Below are positions 463 through 30,350 of a stretch of 64,000 nucleotides of DNA, piece by piece. The notes under the pieces were generated by a model. The model was not told where the DNA came from. It saw only the letters and a list, made by a program, of their open reading frames with translations, and did no database searches. This DNA comes from Naegleria gruberi. Taxonomy: Eukaryota. How positions within the stretch are numbered: position 1 is the first letter of the stretch; every line of letters begins with the position of its first letter. The position numbers and the translations under genes are program-made. The stretch lies in NCBI GenBank assembly GCA_000004985.1, contig GG738915.1; one strand, given 5' to 3'.

Positions 463-2574
463 ATGGTTAAGACTTCAATTGGAAGAGAAAAACAAAAGGC
501 ATCCATTGTTAATATTGCCACAAGAAGATTACTCAAGGATTTGAAGGAAATTAATGAAAATCCACTGCCTGATATTGTGGCAGCTCCCGTAGATGCAGAG
601 AAAAATCTATTTGAATGGAGAGCCAATTTAAAGGGATTTGGGTCTTATGAAGGAGGAATATTTCACATTAGGCTAACCTTTCCAACTGACTACCCAATCA
701 AACCACCAACTGTTGAATTGTGTACACCAATTGATCATCCAAATATCATTGGCAAATCAATATGTTTAGACATGTTGGGAGATGCATGGTCAACAGCTTA
801 CTCTGTGCAATCAATTTTACTCCAATTACAATCCATATTATTGGATGACGAGAGAGTGGATGAGATGGCAACTATTAACCCAAAGCAATACAAGCAAAAA
901 AAGAAGGAAATAGTTGACGCTTGTAAGTGGGCAGTTGAGCAATCTTTGAGATTTTCAGACCCTTCTGTTGGCCATTTTCCTCCTGCAAAGCCGTTCCCAA
1001 AGTTTCAAACAGCACAGGCAAAAGTTATTGATTTGAATGAGTTTACCAAATCTGAGCTTGTTTGCTATTTCTCCAGAAGTTCCTATGAGGAAGATGTGCT
1101 TGGTTATGGTATCACCTTTACAAAGAATATTAGAACTGGAAGAATTAATTTGATCCAATCAACTCTTGAGTTGTTATCTTTGAGATCATTTATGAATTAT
1201 TCCATTAGAAAAACATCGAATGGTGATGAATTTACTCATTGGATGCCTATTTTCGTTGAGCCAAACCATGGTAAAAAGGCAATGCACTTGGCTAAACGTT
1301 CAATTTCAATGATTTGCACAGGTAATGCAAAGAATTTCAAACCTGAACAAGTTATGGAAGTATTTCCAAAGATTCTGACAACTATTTCTGTTGACATTAT
1401 GACTACACAGAAGAAGCATGGTTCTATCAGAGCATTGAAGATCTATTGTCATTACTATAGAACATTTTTGGAGTTTGTGAAGGAATATCCAGAATTATTG
1501 GTAACAATTAATAATAATGTTAAGAGATTTATTGATTCTGAGGATAACAGACACAAAGACGTGACTCCAAATTTAGGAGAACTATTGGCAATCCTTCCAT
1601 TGAGTGATTACTCTTGGAAGGACATTTCAAGTGCATACATTGAGGAGTCGTTTACTAGAAATGTATTTTGGCTTCTTAATAGATATAAAGAATTAGAAAT
1701 GGAAAATTGCAAAGAATTCGATGACATGGATCGTCTCAAATATTCATTTGAAACAAGTAAGGCCAGTCAGAAATTGTTAATGTTGAACATATTCATTTTA
1801 GAAAACATTGCAAGACCTGAAAGAACTGAAATTGAAGAAATCAGAAATGAGTTTGATAATAGACTTGGTAGATTGAATCCAACAGATGAAGATTCCTGTT
1901 TAGAAACATTGAAAAAAATTAACTGTGTCAAAAACTACTTGGAATTCTTTGAGTTTGTTGGAATGAGTCAGGTCAAGGAAGATCAAATTGTTGAACTATT
2001 GAAGCAATCTATCAAGAAGAGTAAGACTAAGGGATACCATGGATCTACTATCTATGTTATGAGTCCTGAAGAGTTCCAAAGACACACTAAGAAATTGGAC
2101 GAATATCTAATTAATGATGGACAAGGAAATTACATACTCGAAACCAATGAAGAGAAGTGGAAAACAGGCTGTATACAAAGATGGGGTACGGTTAAATATC
2201 CTGACTATTTGGAAAACCTCTCAAATCCTTGGCGAAAACTCTACTTGCAGTACAATTTACAAGACTTGATTTCTTCATTGAATGAATCTTGTGATTTCAA
2301 GTATCTCCATCATGTTTTGGAACTTTGTGTTGAGATTCCAAGATTGGAAATTGTCATGTTTAATCCAGAAAAGTTGAAGAGCAAATACTACTTCCTCACG
2401 CTTGTATTGACTAAACTTGTGAATTTGGACACCTTAACAATTTCAAGAGGTGAAACTGGTTTGGGAACATCAGGTTTCCGTGCTCTTATTAAAGGGCTTT
2501 CTAATAATCAAGCCAAATTAGAGAATTTGATTTTAGACAGTTGTGATATTACAGCTAGTTGTGTTGAGAATTAA
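463..2574 (+). CDS. N-terminal part of a multidomain protein: ubiquitin-conjugating enzyme (UBC/E2) catalytic domain followed by a ~530-aa extension that enters RNI-like leucine-rich repeats
   Basis: ATG at 463 with A at -3. Residues ~15-170 match the UBC fold, including the HPNI..GKSICLDML active-site Cys block and a WST..SILLQLQSILL helix (the WSPA..LLSIQSLL equivalent). The C-terminal part reads as LRRs (LENLILDSCDIT...). Stop TAA at 2572-2574. Probably the same gene as 2568-4400. Confidence 0.85.
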   Translation: MVKTSIGREKQKASIVNIATRRLLKDLKEINENPLPDIVAAPVDAEKNLFEWRANLKGFGSYEGGIFHIRLTFPTDYPIKPPTVELCTPIDHPNIIGKSICLDMLGDAWSTAYSVQSILLQLQSILLDDERVDEMATINPKQYKQKKKEIVDACKWAVEQSLRFSDPSVGHFPPAKPFPKFQTAQAKVIDLNEFTKSELVCYFSRSSYEEDVLGYGITFTKNIRTGRINLIQSTLELLSLRSFMNYSIRKTSNGDEFTHWMPIFVEPNHGKKAMHLAKRSISMICTGNAKNFKPEQVMEVFPKILTTISVDIMTTQKKHGSIRALKIYCHYYRTFLEFVKEYPELLVTINNNVKRFIDSEDNRHKDVTPNLGELLAILPLSDYSWKDISSAYIEESFTRNVFWLLNRYKELEMENCKEFDDMDRLKYSFETSKASQKLLMLNIFILENIARPERTEIEEIRNEFDNRLGRLNPTDEDSCLETLKKINCVKNYLEFFEFVGMSQVKEDQIVELLKQSIKKSKTKGYHGSTIYVMSPEEFQRHTKKLDEYLINDGQGNYILETNEEKWKTGCIQRWGTVKYPDYLENLSNPWRKLYLQYNLQDLISSLNESCDFKYLHHVLELCVEIPRLEIVMFNPEKLKSKYYFLTLVLTKLVNLDTLTISRGETGLGTSGFRALIKGLSNNQAKLENLILDSCDITASCVEN

Positions 2575-4400
2575 CAAAAGGATCTCTGAGCTCTTGTAAC
2601 TTGAAACGTATTGCTCTATGTGGAAATCCACTGGGAGATCAAGGAGCCAATTACCTGTCCAAATTCCTAATGAGACATGAAAATGTTCCCCATCTACGTG
2701 AGTTGGATCTTTCTCGCTGTGGAATTAGACAAAATGGAGCTGAATGTATTGCTGAAGCTTTGCTAGTAAAGAGGGAAATTACATCCTTCAAATTTATTGG
2801 AAATCCATCAGAGCAAGGACTGTATACCATATTGAAACACTTGGGATACTCCTCATGTATTGCGGAGATTGATTTCAGTATGACTAGTTCTATTGTAGCC
2901 AATGGTAATTCTGAAAGTATGGTCAAACTGTTGGATCTTTCCACAACTCTCAAGAAGATTAACTTGTGGAAAGCTAATGGATTCCACATTCTCACCCAAG
3001 AAGTATTCAACAGAATTGGTAAATCAAAGAGTTTGAAAGATATTGATATGGCCGAAACAAAATTCAAAGATATTTCACTATTTGCTTTCGCTTTGAAAGA
3101 TAACTACGTATTGGAAACTTTGAATCTATCAAATAATGATATCAAACTCTCTGAGGTGTATCAATTATATTGTAGATTACTTTTGTTACACTTTGAGAAT
3201 GCTAACAAAACGAGAGAATTCTTGGATGGACCTAATGCTGCTGTCCCACCAAAGCTTGTCCATTTACAAAAGCTAACTCTATCTAAGAATAATTTAACTA
3301 ATCTATTACAGTCAAATATCAAAGAGGCAATTAGTATTGGTCAAATAATGAAAATGTGTACAAATTTGAATTATTTGGATTTATCGGGATGTAAAATTGA
3401 CAAAACTCATATGGAAGGAATTGCAGCAGCTTTGGATCCTAAATTCAACCTTCCTCTCAAAACTCTCAAATTGAATAATAATGAGATTGGCAAAACAGGT
3501 TTGAGACCACTTGCCTCTATAATGAAACTCAATACTACCATTGAAGATTTGGACCTCTCTGGTAATGATTTGGGAGTTACAGGAAGTGTTTCATTAGCTG
3601 AAATCATTACAAATAACTCTTCCATCAAGAAATTGAACATATTCTCATGTTTTGTTCAAATTGAAGGAATTGACATTATTTCCAAAGCATTACAACAAAA
3701 CACATCAATCACAGATTTGGATATTGGTTTGAATTCAGCCAAAGAAAGAGGAGCTCTTTCAATTATTGAAATGCTCAAACAAAATACCACTCTTAAGAGG
3801 CTTGGACTCAAATTGAATCATTTAAGTGACAAGACATGTACACAAATTGCCAATATCATTGCTATTGAAAATCCTAAATCCGCAATTCAATATTTAGCTC
3901 TTTCTGGTAATTCTCTTTCAATTTCAACAAGTTCCAATATTTCCATAGTTCTAAACTCTGTAAAGGATAGAGTAATTGAGTTTGATCTTACCAAATTGGT
4001 TGAAGTGAAAGATACAGAAAAACAAAATAGAACTATTTATCTTTCACCACTTCCAAACTCAATTACAATTCAAGATATCAAGAAATTCTTCTATCAACAC
4101 AAATGTGGAGCTATATTGAATGTCTACATTCACAAACATAAGACTCCCAATAAGAAGACCAGACTCAACAAGTATGCCTTTGTAGAGTTTGCTCATCCAG
4201 ACTCACTTCAATTGGCCATACGTTTGAGATATTCTAATAGACCAGAAAAGAAATCTCCAAATGTTGTAAAGCTTTTGAAGAGAATTCGTGGAAATGATGG
4301 TAAGAAAACTAAAGCAAAATGGTATGAATCCAAGCTCATCATCACCAAATCAGGCAATCAACTTCACAATGAAAGAGCCAAAAAGAAAATCAAACATTAA
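2568..4400 (+). CDS. continuation of the same protein: RNI-like leucine-rich repeats plus a C-terminal RRM (RNA-recognition motif) domain
   Basis: Frame 0 is open from 2568, one nt out of phase with the upstream ORF. The LRR periodicity continues across the junction (..LILDSCDITASCVE|ELTKGSLSSCNLKRIALCGNPLGDQGANYL..). The C-terminus has RNP2-like IYLSPL and RNP1-like KYAFVEFA. Stop TAA at 4398-4400. The ORF-track start at 2601 is a TTG. Confidence 0.8.
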   Translation, partial: ELTKGSLSSCNLKRIALCGNPLGDQGANYLSKFLMRHENVPHLRELDLSRCGIRQNGAECIAEALLVKREITSFKFIGNPSEQGLYTILKHLGYSSCIAEIDFSMTSSIVANGNSESMVKLLDLSTTLKKINLWKANGFHILTQEVFNRIGKSKSLKDIDMAETKFKDISLFAFALKDNYVLETLNLSNNDIKLSEVYQLYCRLLLLHFENANKTREFLDGPNAAVPPKLVHLQKLTLSKNNLTNLLQSNIKEAISIGQIMKMCTNLNYLDLSGCKIDKTHMEGIAAALDPKFNLPLKTLKLNNNEIGKTGLRPLASIMKLNTTIEDLDLSGNDLGVTGSVSLAEIITNNSSIKKLNIFSCFVQIEGIDIISKALQQNTSITDLDIGLNSAKERGALSIIEMLKQNTTLKRLGLKLNHLSDKTCTQIANIIAIENPKSAIQYLALSGNSLSISTSSNISIVLNSVKDRVIEFDLTKLVEVKDTEKQNRTIYLSPLPNSITIQDIKKFFYQHKCGAILNVYIHKHKTPNKKTRLNKYAFVEFAHPDSLQLAIRLRYSNRPEKKSPNVVKLLKRIRGNDGKKTKAKWYESKLIITKSGNQLHNERAKKKIKH

Positions 4401-4714
4401 TCTGTTTTAATCACCAAATTCCCAAATTTCACTAGTAGAATTCTTGACATTGAATCATTTTTTGAATGTATTTTTACTAAGGTTTTGTGAAATTTATTTT
4501 CAATACTTCAGAAAAGGTCGAAATGATAAGGTAAAGATAGTCCTCTAACTAGCTTACTTTAAAATTAGTAAAACTCCTACACCCGTCAAAAGTCCTACCC
4601 GCTGCATTTAAGGATCCAACAAGTGCGGGCTATTTTAATCATCATTGATGCAACTTGATGTAATATGAGTGGCATCAAGTATTTTCAAACAAAACACAAC
4701 AAAACACATAAAAA

Positions 4715-5719
4715 ATGGCAGGAGGAGGTTCAACCTACAAATCGACAGAACCAATCGGAACTGGTAGAATATTCTTTTATTGCATTGTTTGGCTGATATT
4801 GGTGATTGGTCTATCGTTTATGAATAAAGCAGTATTTAAATGGACAGAATTCAAGTATCCAGTGCTGCTGTCGACTGTACATATGATTATAAATTGGTTG
4901 ATGGGAAGTTTTGTGTGGGGAAGGATGAATGGAAAGATAAAGGAGGAAGAGGAAAAGAAGGGTCATGATTTGAGACATTTAATAATGTACTTCTCATTGT
5001 TATTTGTATTGAATATTGCTTTCGGAAATATGAGTGTCAAGGCAGTGAATTTATTGTTGAGTCAAGTTTTCAGATCTTCAATGCCAATATTTATAATGAT
5101 TTGTTCGGTTGTGTTGGGTGTTGGAAGTAGACCTAGTACACGCGTTATTCTCACTGTTTTACCAATTATTATTGGAGTTTATTTGACTTGTAAGAAAGAT
5201 GACAGTAAGGTTAGCTCAAATACTGAAGAAGATTTATTGAATATCAAATCATTGGCTATTTTATTAATTGGAAACATTATGTGTGCTCTCAAAACTACTC
5301 TTACCAATAAGTATCTCAATCAGTACAAGTTCCATCCAATTTATTTATTGAGTAAGCTTTCAATGTGGAGCTCTTTTGGAATGTTTGCTTTTGCTGCAGT
5401 GACTGGAGAAGTTTCAGACCTTTTCAACAATAATTTACATGTTTTATATAATGTCAAGACAGTTGGATTTGTCATTTCTACAGGATTTGTTGCATTCCTA
5501 TTGAACTATTTCAATTTCCTTGCCAATTCCTCTACAAGTCCACTCACAATGGGAATTTGTGGATTGTTACATCAAGTGCTGACAGTCTACCTTTCTACCA
5601 TTGTTTTTGATACATCTTTGAATCAAACTAATGTGATTGGTATTTGTCTTGCAATGATTGGCAGTGCTCTCTATACTTTTGTAAAGTATTTAGAAGCTCA
5701 AAAAGTAAAATCAAACTAA
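4715..5719 (+). CDS. multi-pass membrane transporter, DMT superfamily (triose-phosphate / nucleotide-sugar transporter-like), 334 aa
   Basis: aaaaaATG start. About 10 hydrophobic helices in a ~330-aa protein, the typical size and organisation of TPT/NST carriers. Family assignment rests on topology and length only. Confidence 0.55.
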   Translation: MAGGGSTYKSTEPIGTGRIFFYCIVWLILVIGLSFMNKAVFKWTEFKYPVLLSTVHMIINWLMGSFVWGRMNGKIKEEEEKKGHDLRHLIMYFSLLFVLNIAFGNMSVKAVNLLLSQVFRSSMPIFIMICSVVLGVGSRPSTRVILTVLPIIIGVYLTCKKDDSKVSSNTEEDLLNIKSLAILLIGNIMCALKTTLTNKYLNQYKFHPIYLLSKLSMWSSFGMFAFAAVTGEVSDLFNNNLHVLYNVKTVGFVISTGFVAFLLNYFNFLANSSTSPLTMGICGLLHQVLTVYLSTIVFDTSLNQTNVIGICLAMIGSALYTFVKYLEAQKVKSN

Positions 5720-5769
5720 TTTCTAACAACAACTTTCGTATTGAACTTTCCAATAAATTATATTAAAAA

Positions 5770-6840
5770 ATGGCAGAACAAGTTAGGGTTGAGTTATTCG
5801 ATTTTTCAACAACACCATCACAGCAAGGCTGGGAATTAAATAAATTTCTGCAAGAAAGGTTTCGTAAGAAGAAACCGACCGGAGCTTCATTTGCATATTC
5901 CACCTTTCGTAAAATTAATACTATTAGCACAAGAAGGTGGAAACGACGATTCATTGCCAACTCGTTTGCAATTTGCAAATCTTTAAATTGTATTCTCATG
6001 CTCTCATCAAACAACACGGTCTATGTTTATTCTCTCAAATCTAAAAGGTATCTGAATCGGTTTCCACTCTTTCCCTTTGGATATAATTTGGGAGGACCTC
6101 CACTACATTTTAAAGTGGTAGAACGAGAGCAAGATCCAAATAATCAGGCTCACATTATTGTACTACTTTCGGATAGTTTTAATGGTAAATTGGAAATACA
6201 TAAAATTAATTTGGACACATTGATGAAAGAACGAAGTCGTATGAAGAATAGAAATACCAGGATTTTAGATAGCTATGCTTCTAATTTGGTGTGGAAAATT
6301 GAGAAGAATATACCCAAGACAAATGGAACTGCCACAATGCTATTTGTTCCAAATAGAGAGTTTGAGAATGTTGAAAAGGGTGACGCTGCTATATTGATCT
6401 ATTTCACTAATCAAAAGAATATCCTAGATTGTTTTAGTTACAAGTATGGAAAACAACTGAGTTCTATAACTGTCCCTGATACTATAAGTAGCTCAAGTAC
6501 TGTATTACATTTAGCTGTCAGTGGATCTAATTTAATATTTTACAGGTATAACTCTGCTGATTTTGTGGATCAAAGAATGAATGTAATACAGAGTTTGAAA
6601 ACAAACATTATTTGCATTGGAAGCGCTGTCATCTATGAGCCAAATTCAAATGTGTTTATAACCCAGCAATCATCTAAAATTATGGCATTTCAATATCGCG
6701 ATGATAATCTCAGTGTTGTTGGATCACGCAAGTTGAGAGTAAAAGGTAAAACAATCGATTGGTCAATGATGCATTTCAATGATTCCAATGGAGAGCTATT
6801 GGTTCTGCATCGTAATGAGAAATTATTAACATTCAAGTAA
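5770..6840 (+). CDS. hypothetical protein, 356 aa
   Basis: aaaaaATG start only 50 bp after the stop of the preceding gene. Uninterrupted ORF with coding-like composition. No motif recognised. Confidence 0.5.
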   Translation: MAEQVRVELFDFSTTPSQQGWELNKFLQERFRKKKPTGASFAYSTFRKINTISTRRWKRRFIANSFAICKSLNCILMLSSNNTVYVYSLKSKRYLNRFPLFPFGYNLGGPPLHFKVVEREQDPNNQAHIIVLLSDSFNGKLEIHKINLDTLMKERSRMKNRNTRILDSYASNLVWKIEKNIPKTNGTATMLFVPNREFENVEKGDAAILIYFTNQKNILDCFSYKYGKQLSSITVPDTISSSSTVLHLAVSGSNLIFYRYNSADFVDQRMNVIQSLKTNIICIGSAVIYEPNSNVFITQQSSKIMAFQYRDDNLSVVGSRKLRVKGKTIDWSMMHFNDSNGELLVLHRNEKLLTFK

Positions 6841-7382: not shown

Positions 7383-9155
7383 TTAGTTGTCGTCTACTGT
7401 ACTCTCCTTTAACACAGCATCTTCAAAATTTTGGATTTGATGATCAATAAAGTGTTGAAAACGAGAACAGTCACTAACTTTCCATTCAATTTCATTCCAT
7501 TTCGAAAGTAATTTAAACATCATGCTGGAGAAAGAGGATAGATCTTTAAGAATTTGAACTTTTTTCAATTTTGGTGGTTTAAACTGTTGCAATAACTCAA
7601 TATCTTTGTACGATGAAAATGTACATTCCAATGCAATTAAATTCTCATAGTTTTTACCCAATTCTTCAAAAAATTCTTTTGGAAATTCTCCAATTGTACA
7701 AATAATACTTAAATATTCCAAATTTCTCAGTACATCCAATTTAATAAAATCCATCAATTGCTCCTTTCCACTGATTACCACTGATAATCTCCTTAAATGT
7801 TTTAAATGTTCAATCTTTTCCAAATTTTGAGAGATATCTGAATTTGTAAACAGCGATTCCAAATTATTCAAACATTCATTAGAAAACATATTAAAATCTA
7901 TATCTCCTAGGACTTTGATACGTAAATGCTTCAAATTTTTAACTAAGCTCAAATTACTCAAACTAAATGCCAAATCTTTGGTCGCATATAAATTAAATAC
8001 TAATATTTCTAAATTTCTCAATGTATTATTACTGAAAAATTTTTCAGTGTCCTTAAATACTCTCGAAACTATTTTCAATATTTTCAGATTTGAAAAGTTA
8101 TATTTCCATACATGATTAAGACAATAACTGGCTTGATCAGTGTCTTGTGAATAATCAATCCTTAAGTATTTTAAATTTAGAATCATATCAGTGTCAACAA
8201 CCTCATCATCTTGCTCACTTGCATCTATCATGTATGCTTTTAAAATTTCTAATGTTTTAATATTATTTAGAAGCATTATTAGTTGCTTTTCACCATCGAG
8301 CTGTATATCCAAAACTGAGAGGAGTTTCAAATTTAAAATCCGAGAAATATTACTAAATAGATCATCAATTCTCAATATTCTAAGACAGTCAGTATAATTA
8401 TTGATAATTGGTGATAGTTTTTTCATAATATCATACTCCTCCATTGAAATATCTAAAAGTTTCAAATTATATAAATTTCTGTCTTTTAATTCTATTTTGT
8501 TATAACTAGTTTTAATTTTTATAAATTGTATGGTAGGTTTCTTGAAATGGAATGTGAAAGTTTTATCATTTTCCTCAAATAACCTCTTAATGACAAGGTG
8601 TTTGATGTTTACACATTTGAGAATTAATTTTAATAGAGAATCGGGTTCATACTGAGAAAGTATTTCCAAATTTTCTATTTGAATTAAATCACAGTTAGGT
8701 ATTAGAGTAGATTTCCTTATCAATAAATTTTTAATAGTATTAATAACATTCCTAAATTGTTTTGAAACTGTCAAGTATTTAAAAATCTCAAAATCATAAT
8801 TTAAATATGCAAATATGTTACATAATACATCATCACAAAATAATTCCGAACAGGTTTTGATTTGTTTGGTTTTCAACAGTTTATCGTGATCCATATCTTG
8901 ATCACTAATTTCCTCAAATTTGCGTTTGTTCTTATTTTCATCAGTGCTACTTCCATTTGATTTTAATTTACATAATTCAATTTCCAATTTTAATTCTTCC
9001 TGTCTTGCTTTTGCTTTGGCTTCTTCTTGAGTGAATTGTAATTTCAACTTCCACAATTCAAATATTTGCTCCGAAGAGAGTCCAAGCCTTTGACATTGTT
9101 CAATGAAACCATCAGAGTCCCCACCATCCTTTAACACAGCATTTTGTTGCGGCAT
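7383..9155 (-). CDS. F-box / leucine-rich-repeat protein, 590 aa
   Basis: Reverse-strand ATG in aaaaaATG context. Acidic/coiled N-terminus, then an F-box-like block (CSELFCDDVLCNIFAYLNYDFEIFKYLTVSKQFRNVINTIK), then repeated L-rich ~25-aa units. Confidence 0.7.
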   Translation of the reverse strand: MPQQNAVLKDGGDSDGFIEQCQRLGLSSEQIFELWKLKLQFTQEEAKAKARQEELKLEIELCKLKSNGSSTDENKNKRKFEEISDQDMDHDKLLKTKQIKTCSELFCDDVLCNIFAYLNYDFEIFKYLTVSKQFRNVINTIKNLLIRKSTLIPNCDLIQIENLEILSQYEPDSLLKLILKCVNIKHLVIKRLFEENDKTFTFHFKKPTIQFIKIKTSYNKIELKDRNLYNLKLLDISMEEYDIMKKLSPIINNYTDCLRILRIDDLFSNISRILNLKLLSVLDIQLDGEKQLIMLLNNIKTLEILKAYMIDASEQDDEVVDTDMILNLKYLRIDYSQDTDQASYCLNHVWKYNFSNLKILKIVSRVFKDTEKFFSNNTLRNLEILVFNLYATKDLAFSLSNLSLVKNLKHLRIKVLGDIDFNMFSNECLNNLESLFTNSDISQNLEKIEHLKHLRRLSVVISGKEQLMDFIKLDVLRNLEYLSIICTIGEFPKEFFEELGKNYENLIALECTFSSYKDIELLQQFKPPKLKKVQILKDLSSFSSMMFKLLSKWNEIEWKVSDCSRFQHFIDHQIQNFEDAVLKESTVDDN

Positions 9156-9531: not shown

Positions 9532-11513
9532 ATGAAAATAACGCTCGGTTTCAAACCAGGCGTTTTTAATGCTCTTGTTCAAGTGCCTGATCTTTTCAGT
9601 GTTATTCTTCAATATTTGGATTGTTCCTCATTGTTTGCCCTAACGATGGTGAATAAGAAATTATTTGGATTATTTGATGAGAGTAAAATTGATGAATTGG
9701 TTCAATCATCATCGGAAGAGGTGTTGAACGTTGTGACAATTGATCCTAATTTATGGTTGAATTTGGTTTCATACTATGAAGAAAGGTTGAGAAAATTAAA
9801 ATTGGAGTTTAATTCTAACGATTTGTAAGTTGGCTTATCAAGTAGTTGAATATTTACTTGTTTTCTAAAAGCTATCGATACTATCCAATGAACGTAAATT
9901 TTCAAGAATATATTGAGCTTGTGAAGCCAAAAACAACAGAGAAGGAAAATGTAAAAACTAGCAGTATTAGAGAAATACTTGAAATTATTGTTGACTGTAG
10001 GAAAAAATTGAAAAGGTTGTACTCTGATTGTTGGAAACAAAAGAAACCTGAAGAATATGGTGTTGAGTTTTCCAAGAGTGGAAGATCTAGTTGTAAAACT
10101 TGTTTTAAGCCAATTCCATACGGAGTTCTCAGAGGCTATCAGGACAACCACGAAAACTATTACAAAGCTCATGAATGTCACCATTTGACTTGCTTTTATA
10201 AAATACTATTGACTGAAAATGTACGTGAAGAAGATGTGAAATATGAAGAGGAGAAACAAAAAGCAGCCATTTCCAAGCTTTATGAGTTTATAGCAAAGGA
10301 GAAAAAATTAATACAGAAATCAAAGTGGCAATGCACCACTTGTGATGGATGTAATGTACTATTGAATGGAGATGCATACATGTCAGCAGAAAAAGGAAAG
10401 ATGGATCTATGTGCAAAGTGCTATGTCACTAACGATGAGCTGGTTTCTGGAAAAAGTGAGAAGGGGCCTTTTGTCCCTACCCCTCCTTTAAAACCTTTCC
10501 AAAAATGTAGATATTGTAAGGAACAGATCAAAAGGGTCTTATTTAATTGTCATCAATGTAATATTGGCTTTTGTGGAGAGTGTTTAAAATCCTTAAGGTG
10601 GTTTGATCACAAAAAACACTTTATTAATGTAATTGGAAATGCTCTTGATGATGAAATGAAATGTTTAACTGCTGACTTCAAACCTGAAGATGCTAAACCA
10701 TTACCAGTGAGTGCTTATGAAAGGTTTTCTGTTCTGGATTTGATGGAAGAATTTTTAGGAGAATCTAAAAGGGATGCAGGTCAACCAACTCCTTCTGAAA
10801 GATTCACAGCTACCCCCAACAAGAAAACAGATCTATCAGGGATAAAGTCACAAAAAACTGCAACAATTACAAAACCAAGTAATAACGAATCTAACCACTC
10901 TTCTAAAACCAACACTCAACCAAAGAAGCCAGAAAGTACAAAACCAACAACCGAAAAACAAGTTCAAAGCAACTTGAAACTCTCCAAATCGCAACAAGCT
11001 AGTTCCAAGACAATCCCTCAGAAGTCTTCTGTTCAACAAACTCTTTCATCAACAACTTCTAAAAAAAGAGTTTTAATTGAATTGAGCTCTGATGAAGAAT
11101 CAGAAGATGAAATCGATCTAAAGAAATTAGAGGCAACTACAGGATCTAATGAGATTCCAAAATTAAAACCTGAAGTAGTTATTGCCTCAAAAGTTGAACC
11201 AGCCAAGAAGAAATCAAAACAAGAGAAATCCAAGAAGAAAGAAAGCAAGGAAAAAACAAAAAAGAAAAAACCAAAGAAAGAAGAAAACAGTGATGAAGAG
11301 AATGACGAAATCTACCTTGTGGAAAAGCTGTTGGATAGAAAAATAGTGCATGGAAAGCCATACTATCTAGTAAAGTGGGAAGGTTATCCCAACTCAGATA
11401 ACTCGTGGGAACCAAACAACAATATTTCACCAGATCTAATTGAAGATTTTGAGGAGGAATTTGAGAAAAACAAGCCACGAGTAGCAAGCAAGACGAAGAA
11501 GAGAAAAATATAG
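9532..11513 (+). CDS. F-box + ZZ-type zinc fingers + C-terminal chromodomain protein; two exons (9532-9824, 9872-11513)
   Basis: aaaaaaaaATG at 9532. F-box-like VPDLFSVILQYLDCSSLFALTMVNKKLFGL. The upstream ORF ends in ttG|TAAGT (donor 9825). The AG at 9870-71 restores the frame into the long downstream ORF, giving a 47-nt intron. Downstream are C-x2-C...C-x2-C ZZ-like fingers (WQCTTCDGCNV...LCAKCY; CRYCKEQ...CHQCNIGFCGEC), a K/S-rich linker and a canonical chromodomain (EIYLVEKLLDRKIVHGKPYYLVKWEGYPNSDNSWEP). Confidence 0.65.
9825..9871 (+). other. predicted 47-nt spliceosomal intron (GTAAGT...TTTTCTAAAAG)
   Basis: Donor GTAAGT overlaps the in-frame TAA. The acceptor is phase-compatible. Only ~60 nt would otherwise separate the F-box ORF from the next ATG. 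Confidence 0.55.
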
Positions 11514-12979: not shown

Positions 12980-14184
12980 ATGGTGGGATTGAATGGAACG
13001 AATACAACTATTGTAGCCGAAACATCTAGGGAAGAGTTTGGACCATTTCAGTACATGATTTTCGGGGTCAATATTCCCTTTCTGATAATATATTCAATTC
13101 TATTTAGTGCTACCTTGATTAGTTTGATATTTAGTGTAAAGAAACAAGATAAGACGAAACGGAAAACCTTCTACATCCTTATACTTGTTCTGTCCTTGCT
13201 GTTTGCAGTCATTTTGAATTTACTTACAAGAATTGGTTCCGAACTTTGCTATTTCGAAACTGATCCGGATAGACTTGAACGAATATATGGACTGGTAAAG
13301 GCTATTGACAGAACCATGATAGGATTTACAATGTCTATGGAACTTTTATTAATTGATTACATGTCTTTTCTATTGTAAGTACTTAGAATACTTTCCATTT
13401 TATGATGATTAGTTTGGAAACAACTTGGAAAGTGAGCCATTTCATCTAAGCATTTCAAAATTGCTAAGTTTATAACTTTTGGATTGGCTTTGGTTGTTTT
13501 GATTTGTTTAATGTTTCTTCTGAGTGGATTTTTAGTATTAGGAGGTTTCTTTTACGTTTATGGAAATCTTGGGATATTGAATACGATACTGACTTGTCTA
13601 TTTACTGCCTCTGCTATATTGGTAGGGGTTGCTTCCAGTATGCTCCTGATAAACACTCATGTAGGTTTCTAATTATTTAAAATTTGAACAAAATCAATTA
13701 GTATTGTGGGAAATTAATGCTGAAAACACTTGTTAATGGAAGAAAACAAGCCATGACACTTTCCTCATCTCCACCACAATTGAAAGAAAGTTATGATTTG
13801 AAAACAAGAGCCCTCAAGAAAGTGTGGAGTATCATTATTGTAGTTACACTAACTTCTGTTTTTCAGATTATTGGATTTATTTTCACTCCATTATCAATGG
13901 TGGATCATTTTATGATGAGTGGATTTCATATATGTTACAATATATCAATAATGGTCCTTGTAGTTCTGTATTTATATTTATATGGACCTGTGAAGGAATT
14001 TCAACAATTATTCGAAAAGAGAGATTCAAAAGATTTGACAACCATTGTGACTGCATTCGATTCAACAGGATCTGAACGGATTCAGAAAGGATTAACCTTA
14101 TCACATGTTTCGCCTGTGTCTCCTACCGATAGTGAAATAACCTCCAGGCAGGAATTGTTTCAGATAACAAATTCTAGGATATAA
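12980..14184 (+). CDS. seven-transmembrane (GPCR-like) receptor gene, ~3 exons, copy A
   Basis: ATG at 12980 (aaaaacagaATG). N-terminus carries N-glycosylation sites (NGT, NTT). Six to seven hydrophobic helices, short basic intracellular loops, a long K/R-rich third loop and a Ser/Thr-rich C-tail. Intron 13661-13701 (GTAGGT...TTAG, 41 nt) is phase-consistent and identical in copy B. Exon 1 ends in ttG|TAAGT (donor 13375). The phase-compatible acceptor is AG 13523-24 (150-nt intron). The AGs at 13450/13468 would give a cleaner 7TM topology but are 1 nt out of phase, so the first junction is uncertain. An alternative start is ATG 13511. Confidence 0.5.
13661..13701 (+). other. predicted 41-nt intron (GTAGGT...ATTAG) in the 7TM gene
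   Basis: Joins ..LLINTH to YCGKLMLKTLVNGRK.. Without splicing, two tiny ORFs 44 nt apart result. The sequence is identical in copy B (29827-29867). Confidence 0.5.
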
Positions 14185-18307: not shown

Positions 18308-20065
18308 CTATTGTACAAGGCATTTACTACCGCTTGGTGTTGGCTTCTTTCCCAAGATATTCATCTTTGTAAATGGAGTCCTGGTTGTTGGACAACTTGC
18401 AATTAAAATATCACCATTTCCATCTCCTCCAATTAAAGCTTCATCATCCATTTCCAAACTCATTACTCCACTTGTAGGAATAAAGTTTACAACTTTCCAA
18501 GGACAGTTCTTAGTATCATTTCCAACCATCACTCCAGATTTGATAAATTTATCAATTTGTGGTGCTTCAGCAAGTTTTGAACCATTCAATGATTGAGCAA
18601 ATTCATCTGTTGTCATAACGACAACTCCAAGCTTGGATCCAACCACAATCTTTTGACCATCAAATTGTAATCCTCTAATAGCTCCCAATCTGAAAACATC
18701 CATATCATATAATATAGAAGGATCTGGATTTTCCTCTTTTGATGAAGAAGATGAAGAAACTTTTCTATAGTCAATAATTTGAATAAATCCTCTATCAGAT
18801 CCAGCTAGGAATAGATATTTTCCTGCCGATGGATCAAAGCATGAAGCATTGACTTCATAGAGATATGCATCAGTAAATACCTCTCCCACAACATTGGAAG
18901 ATCTTGTATCGAAAATCTTGATATACTTATCTGCAGAGGCAGTAAGAAAGAGATCTGAATATCTTCCAGATGGATTACAATCGACATCATAGATTGCACT
19001 CTTGTGAGTGGAAACACCATTCTTATCACAAATCAAAGTTTTCACTTCTTTCATAGTGGAAGCATCGAATATTTTGGCCACACCATCAGCTCCACCAGTT
19101 ACAAAGCTACTTTCATTAATAATTCTCAAATTCCATATACCATTCTTGTGATTGTGGGGAACACGTCCGATATTCTTCATAATTTCCCCATCCTCAGCCT
19201 CTGGATCATAGGAACCATAATTCAATATATTGGAAAATCCTCCAGTCACTAGAAAGTTTGGAATTCTATGTTGTTGAGTATCAATGCACCACAGCAAACT
19301 TCTCTCTTCATAAGTTTCCTTCCATTCATATTTATATTCTACATTGCTTACATATTGAGTTTCATCATCAAATGCAGCTTTTCCATTCACTTCAATATCA
19401 TAAAAATTAACACTGTGAGAACAGGTCATTAAATGAATCTTGTTATGATCACTGGTCGATCTTAGGAATGTCAGATAATTAATTCCAACACCAGGATCTG
19501 GTAATTCAGGTTTCTTCTCACAAGAAGCAAATGTCTTTTTATGATTGATAAAGAAATCATTTTCCATTTGATTTTCCTCTCCTTCTCTATATCCTCTAAA
19601 TTTATACCATCCCTTATAGAGTGTCAAATGTTCATATTTGAAAATTTCATAGAGTGAATGCGCATTTGTATTCTCAAAAACTCGACGTCTTACTATACTT
19701 TTTTGTGAGGGAGGAATTTCAAGGTGGGTTTTTTCATCATTTGTTGAAGATGAATTATTTTCATTTCTAATAAATTGTTTCCACAATGCATCATTCCTCG
19801 ATGTATACAAAAAGGTTGAATTTACCAATGAAATATTTAAAATAATTTCCCTATATTCAAGGAATGAAAATATGAGAATTAAAACATCTTCGGGAACATC
19901 AGTTACATGATCCAATGAAGAATCACCCAATTTAAATGGTCCTATTTCATCTACATTATTAGTAGAAACTACTCTTTCCGAAACATCATTTAAAACATTT
20001 TCATTTGGTTGATCATCAACATCTTCATCAACATGAGAGGATGAACCTGTTGGTTGTTGAAGCAT
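18308..20065 (-). CDS. F-box / WD40-repeat protein, 585 aa
   Basis: Reverse-strand aaaaaaaATG. F-box DVLILIFSFLEYREIILNISLVNSTFLYTSRNDALWKQF. WD-like repeats (GGADGVAKIFD, TASADKYIKIFD). Confidence 0.7.
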   Translation of the reverse strand: MLQQPTGSSSHVDEDVDDQPNENVLNDVSERVVSTNNVDEIGPFKLGDSSLDHVTDVPEDVLILIFSFLEYREIILNISLVNSTFLYTSRNDALWKQFIRNENNSSSTNDEKTHLEIPPSQKSIVRRRVFENTNAHSLYEIFKYEHLTLYKGWYKFRGYREGEENQMENDFFINHKKTFASCEKKPELPDPGVGINYLTFLRSTSDHNKIHLMTCSHSVNFYDIEVNGKAAFDDETQYVSNVEYKYEWKETYEERSLLWCIDTQQHRIPNFLVTGGFSNILNYGSYDPEAEDGEIMKNIGRVPHNHKNGIWNLRIINESSFVTGGADGVAKIFDASTMKEVKTLICDKNGVSTHKSAIYDVDCNPSGRYSDLFLTASADKYIKIFDTRSSNVVGEVFTDAYLYEVNASCFDPSAGKYLFLAGSDRGFIQIIDYRKVSSSSSSKEENPDPSILYDMDVFRLGAIRGLQFDGQKIVVGSKLGVVVMTTDEFAQSLNGSKLAEAPQIDKFIKSGVMVGNDTKNCPWKVVNFIPTSGVMSLEMDDEALIGGDGNGDILIASCPTTRTPFTKMNILGKKPTPSGSKCLVQ

Positions 20066-21416: not shown

Positions 21417-21570
21417 NNNNNNNNNNNNNNNNNNNNNNNNNNNNNNNNNNNNNNNNNNNNNNNNNNNNNNNNNNNNNNNNNNNNNNNNNNNNNNNNNNNN
21501 NNNNNNNNNNNNNNNNNNNNNNNNNNNNNNNNNNNNNNNNNNNNNNNNNNNNNNNNNNNNNNNNNNNNNN
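21417..21570. other. assembly gap (154 N)
   Basis: Run of n. Truncates the Ykt6 gene and possibly the 5' end of the gene at 20585-21397. Confidence 0.99.
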
Positions 21571-29631: not shown

Positions 29632-29681
29632 NNNNNNNNNNNNNNNNNNNNNNNNNNNNNNNNNNNNNNNNNNNNNNNNNN
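29632..29681. other. assembly gap (50 N)
   Basis: Run of n separating the gene at 27939 from repeat copy B. Confidence 0.99.
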
Positions 29682-30350
29682 TCTTCTGAGTGGATTTTTA
29701 GTATTAGGAGGTTTCTTTTACGTTTATGGAAATCTTGGTATATTGAATACCATACTGACTTGTCTATTTACTGCCTCTGCTATATTGGTAGGAGTTGCTT
29801 CCAGTATGCTCCTGATAAACACTCATGTAGGTTTCTAATTATTTAAAATTTGAACAAAATCAATTAGTATTGTGGGAAATTAATGCTGCAAACACTTGTT
29901 AATGGAAGAAAACAAGCCATGACACTTTCCTCATCTCCACCACAATTGAAAGAAAGTTATGATTTGAAAACAAGAGCCCTCAAGAAAGTGTGGAGTATCA
30001 TTATTGTAGTTACACTAACTTCTGTTTTTCAGATTATTGGATTTATTTTCACTCCATTATCAATGGTGGATCATTTTATGATGAGTGGATTTCATATATG
30101 TTACAATATATCAATAATGGTCCTTGTAGTTCTGTATTTATATTTATATGGACCTGTGAAGGAATTTCAACAATTATTCGAAAAGAGAGATTCAAAAGAT
30201 TTGACAACCATTGTGACTGCATTCGATTCAACAGGATCTGAACGGATTCAGAAAGGATTAACCTTATCACATGTTTCGCCTGTGTCTCCTACCGATAGTG
30301 AAATAACCTCCAGACAGGAATTGTTTCAGATAAAAAATTCTAGGATTTAA
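29682..30350 (+). CDS. 7TM GPCR-like gene, copy B (5' part lost in gap); exons 29682-29826 and 29868-30350
   Basis: About 99% identical to 13516-14184. Differences in the coding part are 5 synonymous and 2 nonsynonymous (K/Q, T/K). Same 41-nt intron. Confidence 0.5.

Follow-up and report, generated by a model that had tools for sequence, protein, structure and literature searches.

The 64,000-nucleotide (nt) window analyzed here (by which we mean the whole stretch, part of the draft scaffold of Naegleria gruberi NEG-M, contig GG738915.1) carries, between positions 463 and 4400, a gene for a large ubiquitin-conjugating enzyme (E2) protein whose reading frame is broken once. The two open stretches that make up this region are the two halves of one gene (Table 1): a frame 1 open reading frame (ORF) that ends at a premature stop codon and a frame 3 stretch whose 610 open codons would be expected by chance, from the base composition, with a probability of ~7e-22, and over which the two remaining frames contain 38 and 59 stops. 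Restoring a single missing base yields a protein of 1,312 amino acids (aa) in which a ubiquitin-conjugating (UBC) E2 domain is followed by a UBR4-like domain (hemiRING/UZI fold), leucine-rich repeats (LRRs) of the ribonuclease-inhibitor type, and an RNA recognition motif (RRM). The original prediction, made from the sequence of this region, had proposed one gene encoding a protein of about 1,300 aa, and this view is upheld by the length of the repaired product, by orthologs that are uninterrupted, and by the open frame found across the site in a near-identical strain.

Table 1. Features of the frame-broken E2 gene and its annotation (window coordinates; CDS, coding sequence)
Feature	Position	Strand	Basis or remark
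ORF1, 703 aa	463-2574	+	Frame 1; ORF list
Upstream CDS half, aa 1-702 of the repaired 1,312-aa protein	463-2568	+	Frame 1; ORF list; collinear with orthologs from their residue 4-5 on
UBC (E2) catalytic domain; HPN 736-744, catalytic Cys101 codon 763-765	526-912	+	Pfam UQ_con
Conserved mid domain of ~340 aa (aa 198-541), no sequence-level annotation	1054-2085	+	Predicted fold like the UBR4 hemiRING-UZI E3 module
LRR region, ribonuclease-inhibitor/RanGAP-like units of 28-31 residues, spanning the break	2383-3971	+	Pfam LRR_6, LRR_1, LRR_4; repeat register
Break, one G of GG absent	2566-2571	+	Window GAG-AAT versus GAG GAA T in the near-identical strain; DNA alignment with contig L001, difference list, ortholog protein alignment
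Downstream CDS half, aa 703-1312, and stop codon 4398-4400	2568-4400	+	Frame 3; 610 open codons
Premature TAA in frame 1, product of the missing base	2572-2574	+	Direct sequence reading
Reference gene model EFC37706.1 / XP_002670450.1 / D2VZS0, 576 aa, "predicted protein"	2670-4400	+	Exact-sequence look-up
RRM; RNP2-like TIYLSPLP from 4032, RNP1-like KYAFVEFA from 4170	4035-4223	+	Pfam RRM_1

Searches of the repaired protein with profile hidden Markov models matched UQ_con, LRR_6, and RRM_1, in agreement with the E2 domain with an intact active site, the LRR periodicity running across the break, and the C-terminal RRM that had been read from the sequence beforehand. The UQ_con match covers aa 22 to 150 (94.4 bits against a cutoff of 27; E = 6.1e-27), and both the H92-P93-N94 motif and the catalytic C101 (in SICLDML) are present. 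At an E value of ≤0.001 the UBC domain is matched by 278 distinct PDB sequences, and the 60 listed are E2 enzymes; the best match is 5v0r_A (E = 4.9e-26, query residues 17 to 152). The domain is not specifically RAD6/UBE2A-like, with UBE2D and UBE2E scoring slightly higher. The LRRs reach 65.8 bits with LRR_6, and the second frame matches LRR_6, LRR_1, LRR_4, and RRM_1. Consecutive LRR cores of the form LxxLxLxx(N/C)xL lie 28 to 31 residues apart at aa 686 to 745 and 969 to 1055, and after repair the repeat that contains the break (aa 686 to 713) is exactly 28 residues long, with the next repeat starting at 714. Repeats of 28 to 29 residues and an LRR_6 match are features in common with LRR proteins of the ribonuclease-inhibitor/RanGAP type, although in the present protein the repeats accompany an E2 domain as an accessory module; one relative carries an automatic annotation from the Joint Genome Institute (JGI) as RanGAP-like. 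The RRM_1 match (32.3 bits against a cutoff of 20.7) is accompanied by RNP1- and RNP2-like motifs, from which RNA binding is predicted.

A single missing base at the frame break

Because conserved ortholog residues flank both sides of the break, the switch of frame can be placed between 2566 and 2571, with exactly one base missing. The lost base is one G from the GG at 2567/2568 (GAGGAA read as GAGAA), which amounts to a phase change of -1. The site reads GAGAATTA when it lacks the G and GAGGAATTA (at 2566 to 2572) when it has it, and the repaired protein reads ..SCVEELTKGSLSSCNLK.. over the junction. The single -1 phase break described originally therefore stands, as the ..CVE of ORF1 and the ELTKG.. 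of the downstream frame each align to conserved ortholog residues.

With the conceptually repaired protein as the query, we recovered full-length, uninterrupted relatives of ~1,300 to 1,380 aa in Naegleria fowleri (55% identity), Willaertia magna (two paralogs), Acrasis kona, and environmental eukaryotes. The N. fowleri, Willaertia, and Acrasis orthologs have 45 to 55% identity over 96 to 98% of the length, and 22 of the full-length relatives, with matches to UQ_con, LRR, and RRM profiles, are collinear with 88 to 98% of the repaired protein; the orthologs carry a precomputed PF27087 LRR_TMOD-LMOD match as well. The first homology search omitted D2VZS0, which is 100% identical over 576 aa, although this protein is in the collection, and absence from that search is not evidence of absence. 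The N. fowleri gene FDP41_004051 (annotated as a "UBC core domain-containing protein," 1,349 aa) and its counterparts in Willaertia magna and Acrasis kona share the domain order of the repaired protein (UQ_con, mid domain, LRR_6/LRR_TMOD-LMOD, RRM_1) but are uninterrupted at the position of the break. The genomic ORF of N. fowleri is unbroken for aa 60 to 1349, and its sole intron, near aa 60, has no counterpart in the N. gruberi gene. At the break the orthologs read ..SIQELTKG.., with the general pattern ..[SC][IV][QE]ELTKG.., and the closer orthologs read ..DSCDITAQ-SIQELTKGRLVSSNLKRIALNGN.., as compared to ..DSCDITASCVE (frame 1) followed by ELTKGSLSSCNLKRIALCGN (frame 3) in the window. The architecture had been put forward as one not known from characterized proteins; this holds insofar as the orthologs are themselves uncharacterized, but the combination is not unique to this locus, since public databases already contain intact orthologs of the same architecture from N. 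fowleri, Willaertia, and Acrasis.

An intact allele was identified in an independent metagenome. This contig (k127_490272 from run ERR1078381, assembly ERZ929261, project PRJEB11402; here called L001) was retrieved through the identical protein of a neighboring transporter gene, and it aligns to positions 2401 to 6735 of the window with 98.96% identity over 4.3 kb. At the break L001 reads GTTGAGGAATTA, the DNA alignment at this point being GTTGAGGAATTAACA in L001 versus GTTGAGAATTAACA in the window, and its ORF extends for 666 open codons from the contig edge across the break to the same stop codon, reading ..SCVEELTKGSL... The two sequences differ by 29 substitutions and 8 indel events over the 4.3 kb and represent different strains. 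All 7 indel events other than the break are intergenic (4401 to 4714 and 5720 to 5769). Substitutions within the gene comprise 9 synonymous and 2 nonsynonymous changes; the downstream 610 codons, with 7 synonymous and 2 nonsynonymous changes, show no decay, and the protein of the downstream half differs from the L001 product at 2 amino acids. When the E2 gene and the transporter gene are taken together, the counts are 2 nonsynonymous and 12 synonymous changes. The density of indels between the two sequences is ~1 event per 50 nt of spacer and 1 event in the ~3.9 kb of coding sequence compared. JGI metagenomes, scanned by exact pattern for either variant of the break region, gave 0 matches, a protein-seeded metagenome scan recovered no relatives, and the sole Logan contig recovered shares its run with L001 and is not independent of it.

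Cause of the frame break

The break is peculiar to this reference sequence or strain, with no programmed mechanism. Three causes had been proposed, of which a base-calling indel and a recent mutation still stand, while a programmed frameshift fails on the intact G in the near-identical strain. Our assessment is that an error, and not a true NEG-M allele, is the most likely origin of the missing base, and we consider it somewhat probable that the G was lost through an error of base calling or of the consensus, in a stretch of the draft scaffold that is poorly assembled and rich in gaps. We weigh an error above a real lesion because the downstream half shows no decay, the other indels are all intergenic, the gene is conserved, and the region is rich in gaps; three N gaps within the surrounding 31 kb point to weak assembly at the locus. 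If the break is an error, the full-length protein would be made by ordinary translation in the organism. Several points weigh against this reading: the break was judged on assembled sequences and orthologs; the GG context is a dinucleotide, with no long homopolymer; and a real polymorphism may underlie the difference from L001, which comes from another strain, ~1% divergent.

The last of these points leads to the principal alternative, that the missing G is real in NEG-M, which we regard as a serious possibility, if not a probable one. Such a frameshift would have arisen very recently and would either have become fixed in this axenic laboratory strain, long kept in culture, or affect only one haplotype of a heterozygous diploid. 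Translation would stop at 703 aa, past the first LRR; the product would keep the E2 and the UBR4-like domain, and the LRR-RRM half would go untranslated. The substitutions and indels that separate the window from L001 make a polymorphic indel possible, and the dinucleotide context likewise speaks for a genuine mutation. N. gruberi is, moreover, reported to be heterozygous (PMC9928731, citing Fritz-Laylin 2010), and the repaired 1,312-aa protein is on record in no public assembly of NEG-M. A real lesion is opposed by the same observations that favor an error, namely the intergenic position of all remaining strain indels, the undecayed downstream codons, the gaps around the locus, and the conservation of the gene, which extends across Heterolobosea.

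We regard it as very improbable that the two frames are joined by programmed ribosomal frameshifting (of -1, or of +2 at the TAA). As at canonical -1 programmed frameshift sites of the viral or dnaX type, two frames offset by -1 overlap, here at the stop codon (AAT TAA), and no stop interrupts the downstream frame. In contrast to those sites, however, the slippery heptamer, the stimulatory structure, and the conserved shift are all missing: there is no X XXY YYZ heptamer at GTTGAGAATTAAC, where the site reads GTT GAG AAT TAA C; the 141 nt from the site (2560 to 2700) have a minimum free energy of -27.5 kcal/mol, against a mean of -26.3 for shuffled sequences (z = -0.34); the 99%-identical strain represented by L001 encodes the protein in a single frame; and both the N. 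fowleri genomic ORF and the predicted orthologous proteins are continuous at the site.

We give equally little credence to the arrangement implied by the annotation, in which an E2 gene ending at 2574 and an LRR-RRM gene beginning at 2670 are independent of each other. The reference proteome does contain D2VZS0 as a protein of its own, but this protein begins inside an LRR, the 34 codons 5' of its Met are open and conserved, 22 of the full-length relatives are collinear with 88 to 98% of the repaired protein, and the single ORF of L001 spans the junction. Least credible of all, and to our minds close to negligible, is the splicing of a tiny 23-nt GT..AG intron (2558 to 2580), for although its removal would give an open frame (..DITARSLSS..), it would delete SCVEELTKG, which is conserved in orthologs, and shrink a regular 28-residue LRR to 20 residues, the same bases are coding in L001, and the only other GT..AG candidate, of 20 nt (2561 to 2580), results in an in-frame TGA, in accord with the earlier view that the break contains no sensible intron.

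A predicted UBR4-like module joined to an E2 domain

The UBC domain and the LRRs are separated by a conserved domain of ~340 aa that the original prediction had overlooked and that is the most interesting part of the protein. This mid domain has no Pfam match and no match among PDB sequences. An AlphaFold2 model of aa 180 to 646, based on 27 homologs, was confident (pLDDT 87.7, pTM 0.71), and a Foldseek search with the mid-domain model recovered only one match at an E value of ≤0.001, 8btl_A (1.5e-5, probability 1.00, target TM 0.58). In the 8BTL entry UBE2A is bound to the UBR4 E3 module, which is composed of a "hemiRING" zinc finger and a helical UZI subdomain (PMC10873205); the module was reported in 2024 as a new fold, with the predicted RING-UZI modules of UBR1-3 as its nearest relatives (PMC10873205). 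In the UBR4 type of module a RING-like subdomain rich in beta structure packs against a UZI bundle of 11 helices, and the predicted fold of the mid domain matches this layout. The human UBR4 module works with UBE2A/UBE2B as a separate E2 in trans (PDB 8BTL/8B5W; PMC10873205), whereas in the Naegleria protein the E2 is fused in cis. A second AlphaFold2 model, of aa 1 to 646, was confident as a single unit with the linker included (pLDDT 88.7, pTM 0.78, linker pLDDT 80 to 94), which suggests that the UBC domain may be held in a fixed arrangement on the UBR4-like module.

A number of results limit the resemblance to UBR4 and count against the functional reading given below. The C2HC zinc ligands of UBR4 (CxxC...HxxC) have no counterpart, with no CxxC or HxxC in aa 180 to 300, and Cys201 alone is invariant in the N-terminal subdomain of the mid domain. 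There is also no link at the level of sequence: a profile of 21 family members searched against PDB sequences misses 8btl even at an E value of ≤10, and the mid domain has no UBR4-family Pfam match at an E value of ≤1, so that the resemblance lies in the match of a predicted model. Taken at its face, the model indicates a UBR4-like fold that does not have the zinc site of UBR4. A RING-like domain without zinc could, in the manner of the U-box, nonetheless engage an E2.

The mid domain belongs to a wider family. A profile search recovered 3,152 cluster representatives among 1.84 billion at an E value of ≤1e-3, including 1,110 at ≤1e-30, while a profile search of a named protein database returned 5 proteins only. 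A UBC domain was identified in 100 of 141 further top-scoring representatives, always N-terminal to the mid domain. Among the 41 representatives that lack one, 24 have their N terminus within 120 residues of the mid domain, and truncation of the gene call is probable for these. Of 139 members, 127 retain the catalytic Cys and 122 the His of HPN. A CxxCxH motif directly follows the UBC domain in 64 of the 139 (the equivalent region of the window is ~895 to 1075), and the mid domain opens with C-[FY]-H in 79; these motifs could be what is left of a RING-type zinc site that was split by inserted domains. The clade of Naegleria, Willaertia, and Acrasis has lost both motifs, with one Cys only remaining. 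Partner domains were diverse in the 49 members sampled, with F-box-like domains in 13, LRR_6 in 10, TerD in 7, RRM in 5, and S1 and VWA in 3 each, in addition to single cases of LigT/2'-5' RNA ligase, ankyrin, and zf-CCCH domains. Modular ligases are usually laid out in this way, with the catalytic pair unchanged and the binding domains exchanged.

Judging from the predicted structure, the protein is plausibly a self-contained E2-E3 ligase. In such an enzyme the UBC domain would be charged by an E1, the fused UBR4-like module would hold, position, or activate the ubiquitin-loaded E2 (E2~Ub) in cis, as UBR4 does with UBE2A in trans, and the LRRs and the RRM would select protein or RNA-protein (RNP) targets. 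More broadly, and tentatively, it is possible that these proteins constitute a large protist family of natural single-chain E2-E3 ligases, in which a competent UBC domain is fused to a UBR4-type module and specificity domains are swapped (F-box-like, TerD, VWA, LRR, and repeatedly RRM, S1, CCCH, and LigT); that the Naegleria LRR-RRM member targets RNA-protein complexes; and that the zinc-free RING-like subdomain relates to the hemiRING as the U-box does to the RING.

In UBE2O and BIRC6 one large polypeptide combines a UBC domain with substrate-binding regions, which lets either enzyme work without the help of a separate E3; the UBC domain in them is C-terminal or central, and a UZI-like module, LRRs, and an RRM are lacking. 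The Naegleria protein shares with them the theme of a large E2/E3 hybrid but has its UBC domain at the N terminus, and Pfam and PDB sequence searches found no homology to UBE2O or BIRC6 beyond the UBC domain. The architecture is real, conserved, and uncharacterized, and its UBR4-like module is a variant on the E2/E3-hybrid theme. We found no prior description of the Naegleria E2-LRR-RRM protein, of the family, or of an E2-UZI-type fusion in the literature searched, the coverage of which was incomplete, so that this is absence of evidence only.

The fusion of the E2 to the mid domain is supported by the at least 1,100 clusters at an E value of ≤1e-30 and by the frequency of the UBC domain among the top-scoring representatives, and the significance of an E2-UBR4-like fusion would follow from the predicted structure of the mid domain. 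If the UBR4 fold is indeed fused to an E2, this would provide gene-fusion evidence that partnering with an E2 is the ancestral job of the module, and structural and mechanistic studies would gain from the family a set of compact enzymes in which E2 and E3 are naturally fused. The recurrence of RNA-binding partner domains may point to the ubiquitination of RNA-protein complexes.

Annotation and surroundings of the locus

The reference annotation of the gene appears to be split or incomplete at 2670 to 4400. The start of D2VZS0 is an internal Met in the middle of the LRRs, and the model covers only the 3' half of the gene. Neither the 703-aa nor the 599-aa nor the repaired 1,312-aa product was retrieved by exact look-ups, with no exact match in the protein collection for the E2 half encoded by ORF1, and the 576-aa product is on record only as an NCBI reference protein, without an encoding contig. 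The frame break itself is relevant for curation only: comparative studies that use the N. gruberi proteome would mis-score this gene, because the proteome carries only the truncated 576-aa protein.

The window is AT-rich (~33% GC) and contains N runs at 21417 to 21570 (154 bases), 29632 to 29681 (50 bases), and 31268 to 62617 (31,350 bases), so that a scaffold gap occupies half of it; ORFs listed across these runs, such as the apparent ones of >10,000 aa, are artifacts. Six adjacent ORFs are identical to NEG-M proteins, including EFC37707/XP_002670451, EFC37708, and the PIP5K EFC37710, and all are encoded on one record of 260,018 bp. An alternative genetic code of the ciliate or Euplotes type was rejected, as the standard code leaves the long ORFs of the window open and the organism is Naegleria.

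F-box proteins are encoded near the E2 gene on the minus strand, at 7383 to 9155 and 18308 to 20065, and an F-box-like gene lies directly upstream of the N. fowleri ortholog (3719 to 5561 of its contig, L002), while the remaining flanking genes differ between the two species. This proximity in both species may be a coincidence, given the many F-box genes of Naegleria. The neighboring gene EFC37708 (5770 to 6840), which has no Pfam match, differs from L001 by 4 nonsynonymous and 3 synonymous changes, and by these counts it looks fast evolving or weakly constrained. The ORF at 9846 to 11513 combines a zf-PARP match (29 bits, below the Pfam cutoff) with a C-terminal chromo domain (56 bits), an unusual pairing. 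Lastly, a 111-nt stretch of another metagenome contig (L003, 841 to 951) matches the window at both 29682 to 29792 and 13517 to 13627 with 97 to 98% identity, and one of these sites adjoins the N gap at 29632 to 29681; the stretch looks like a short dispersed repeat, which is a possible cause of that assembly gap.

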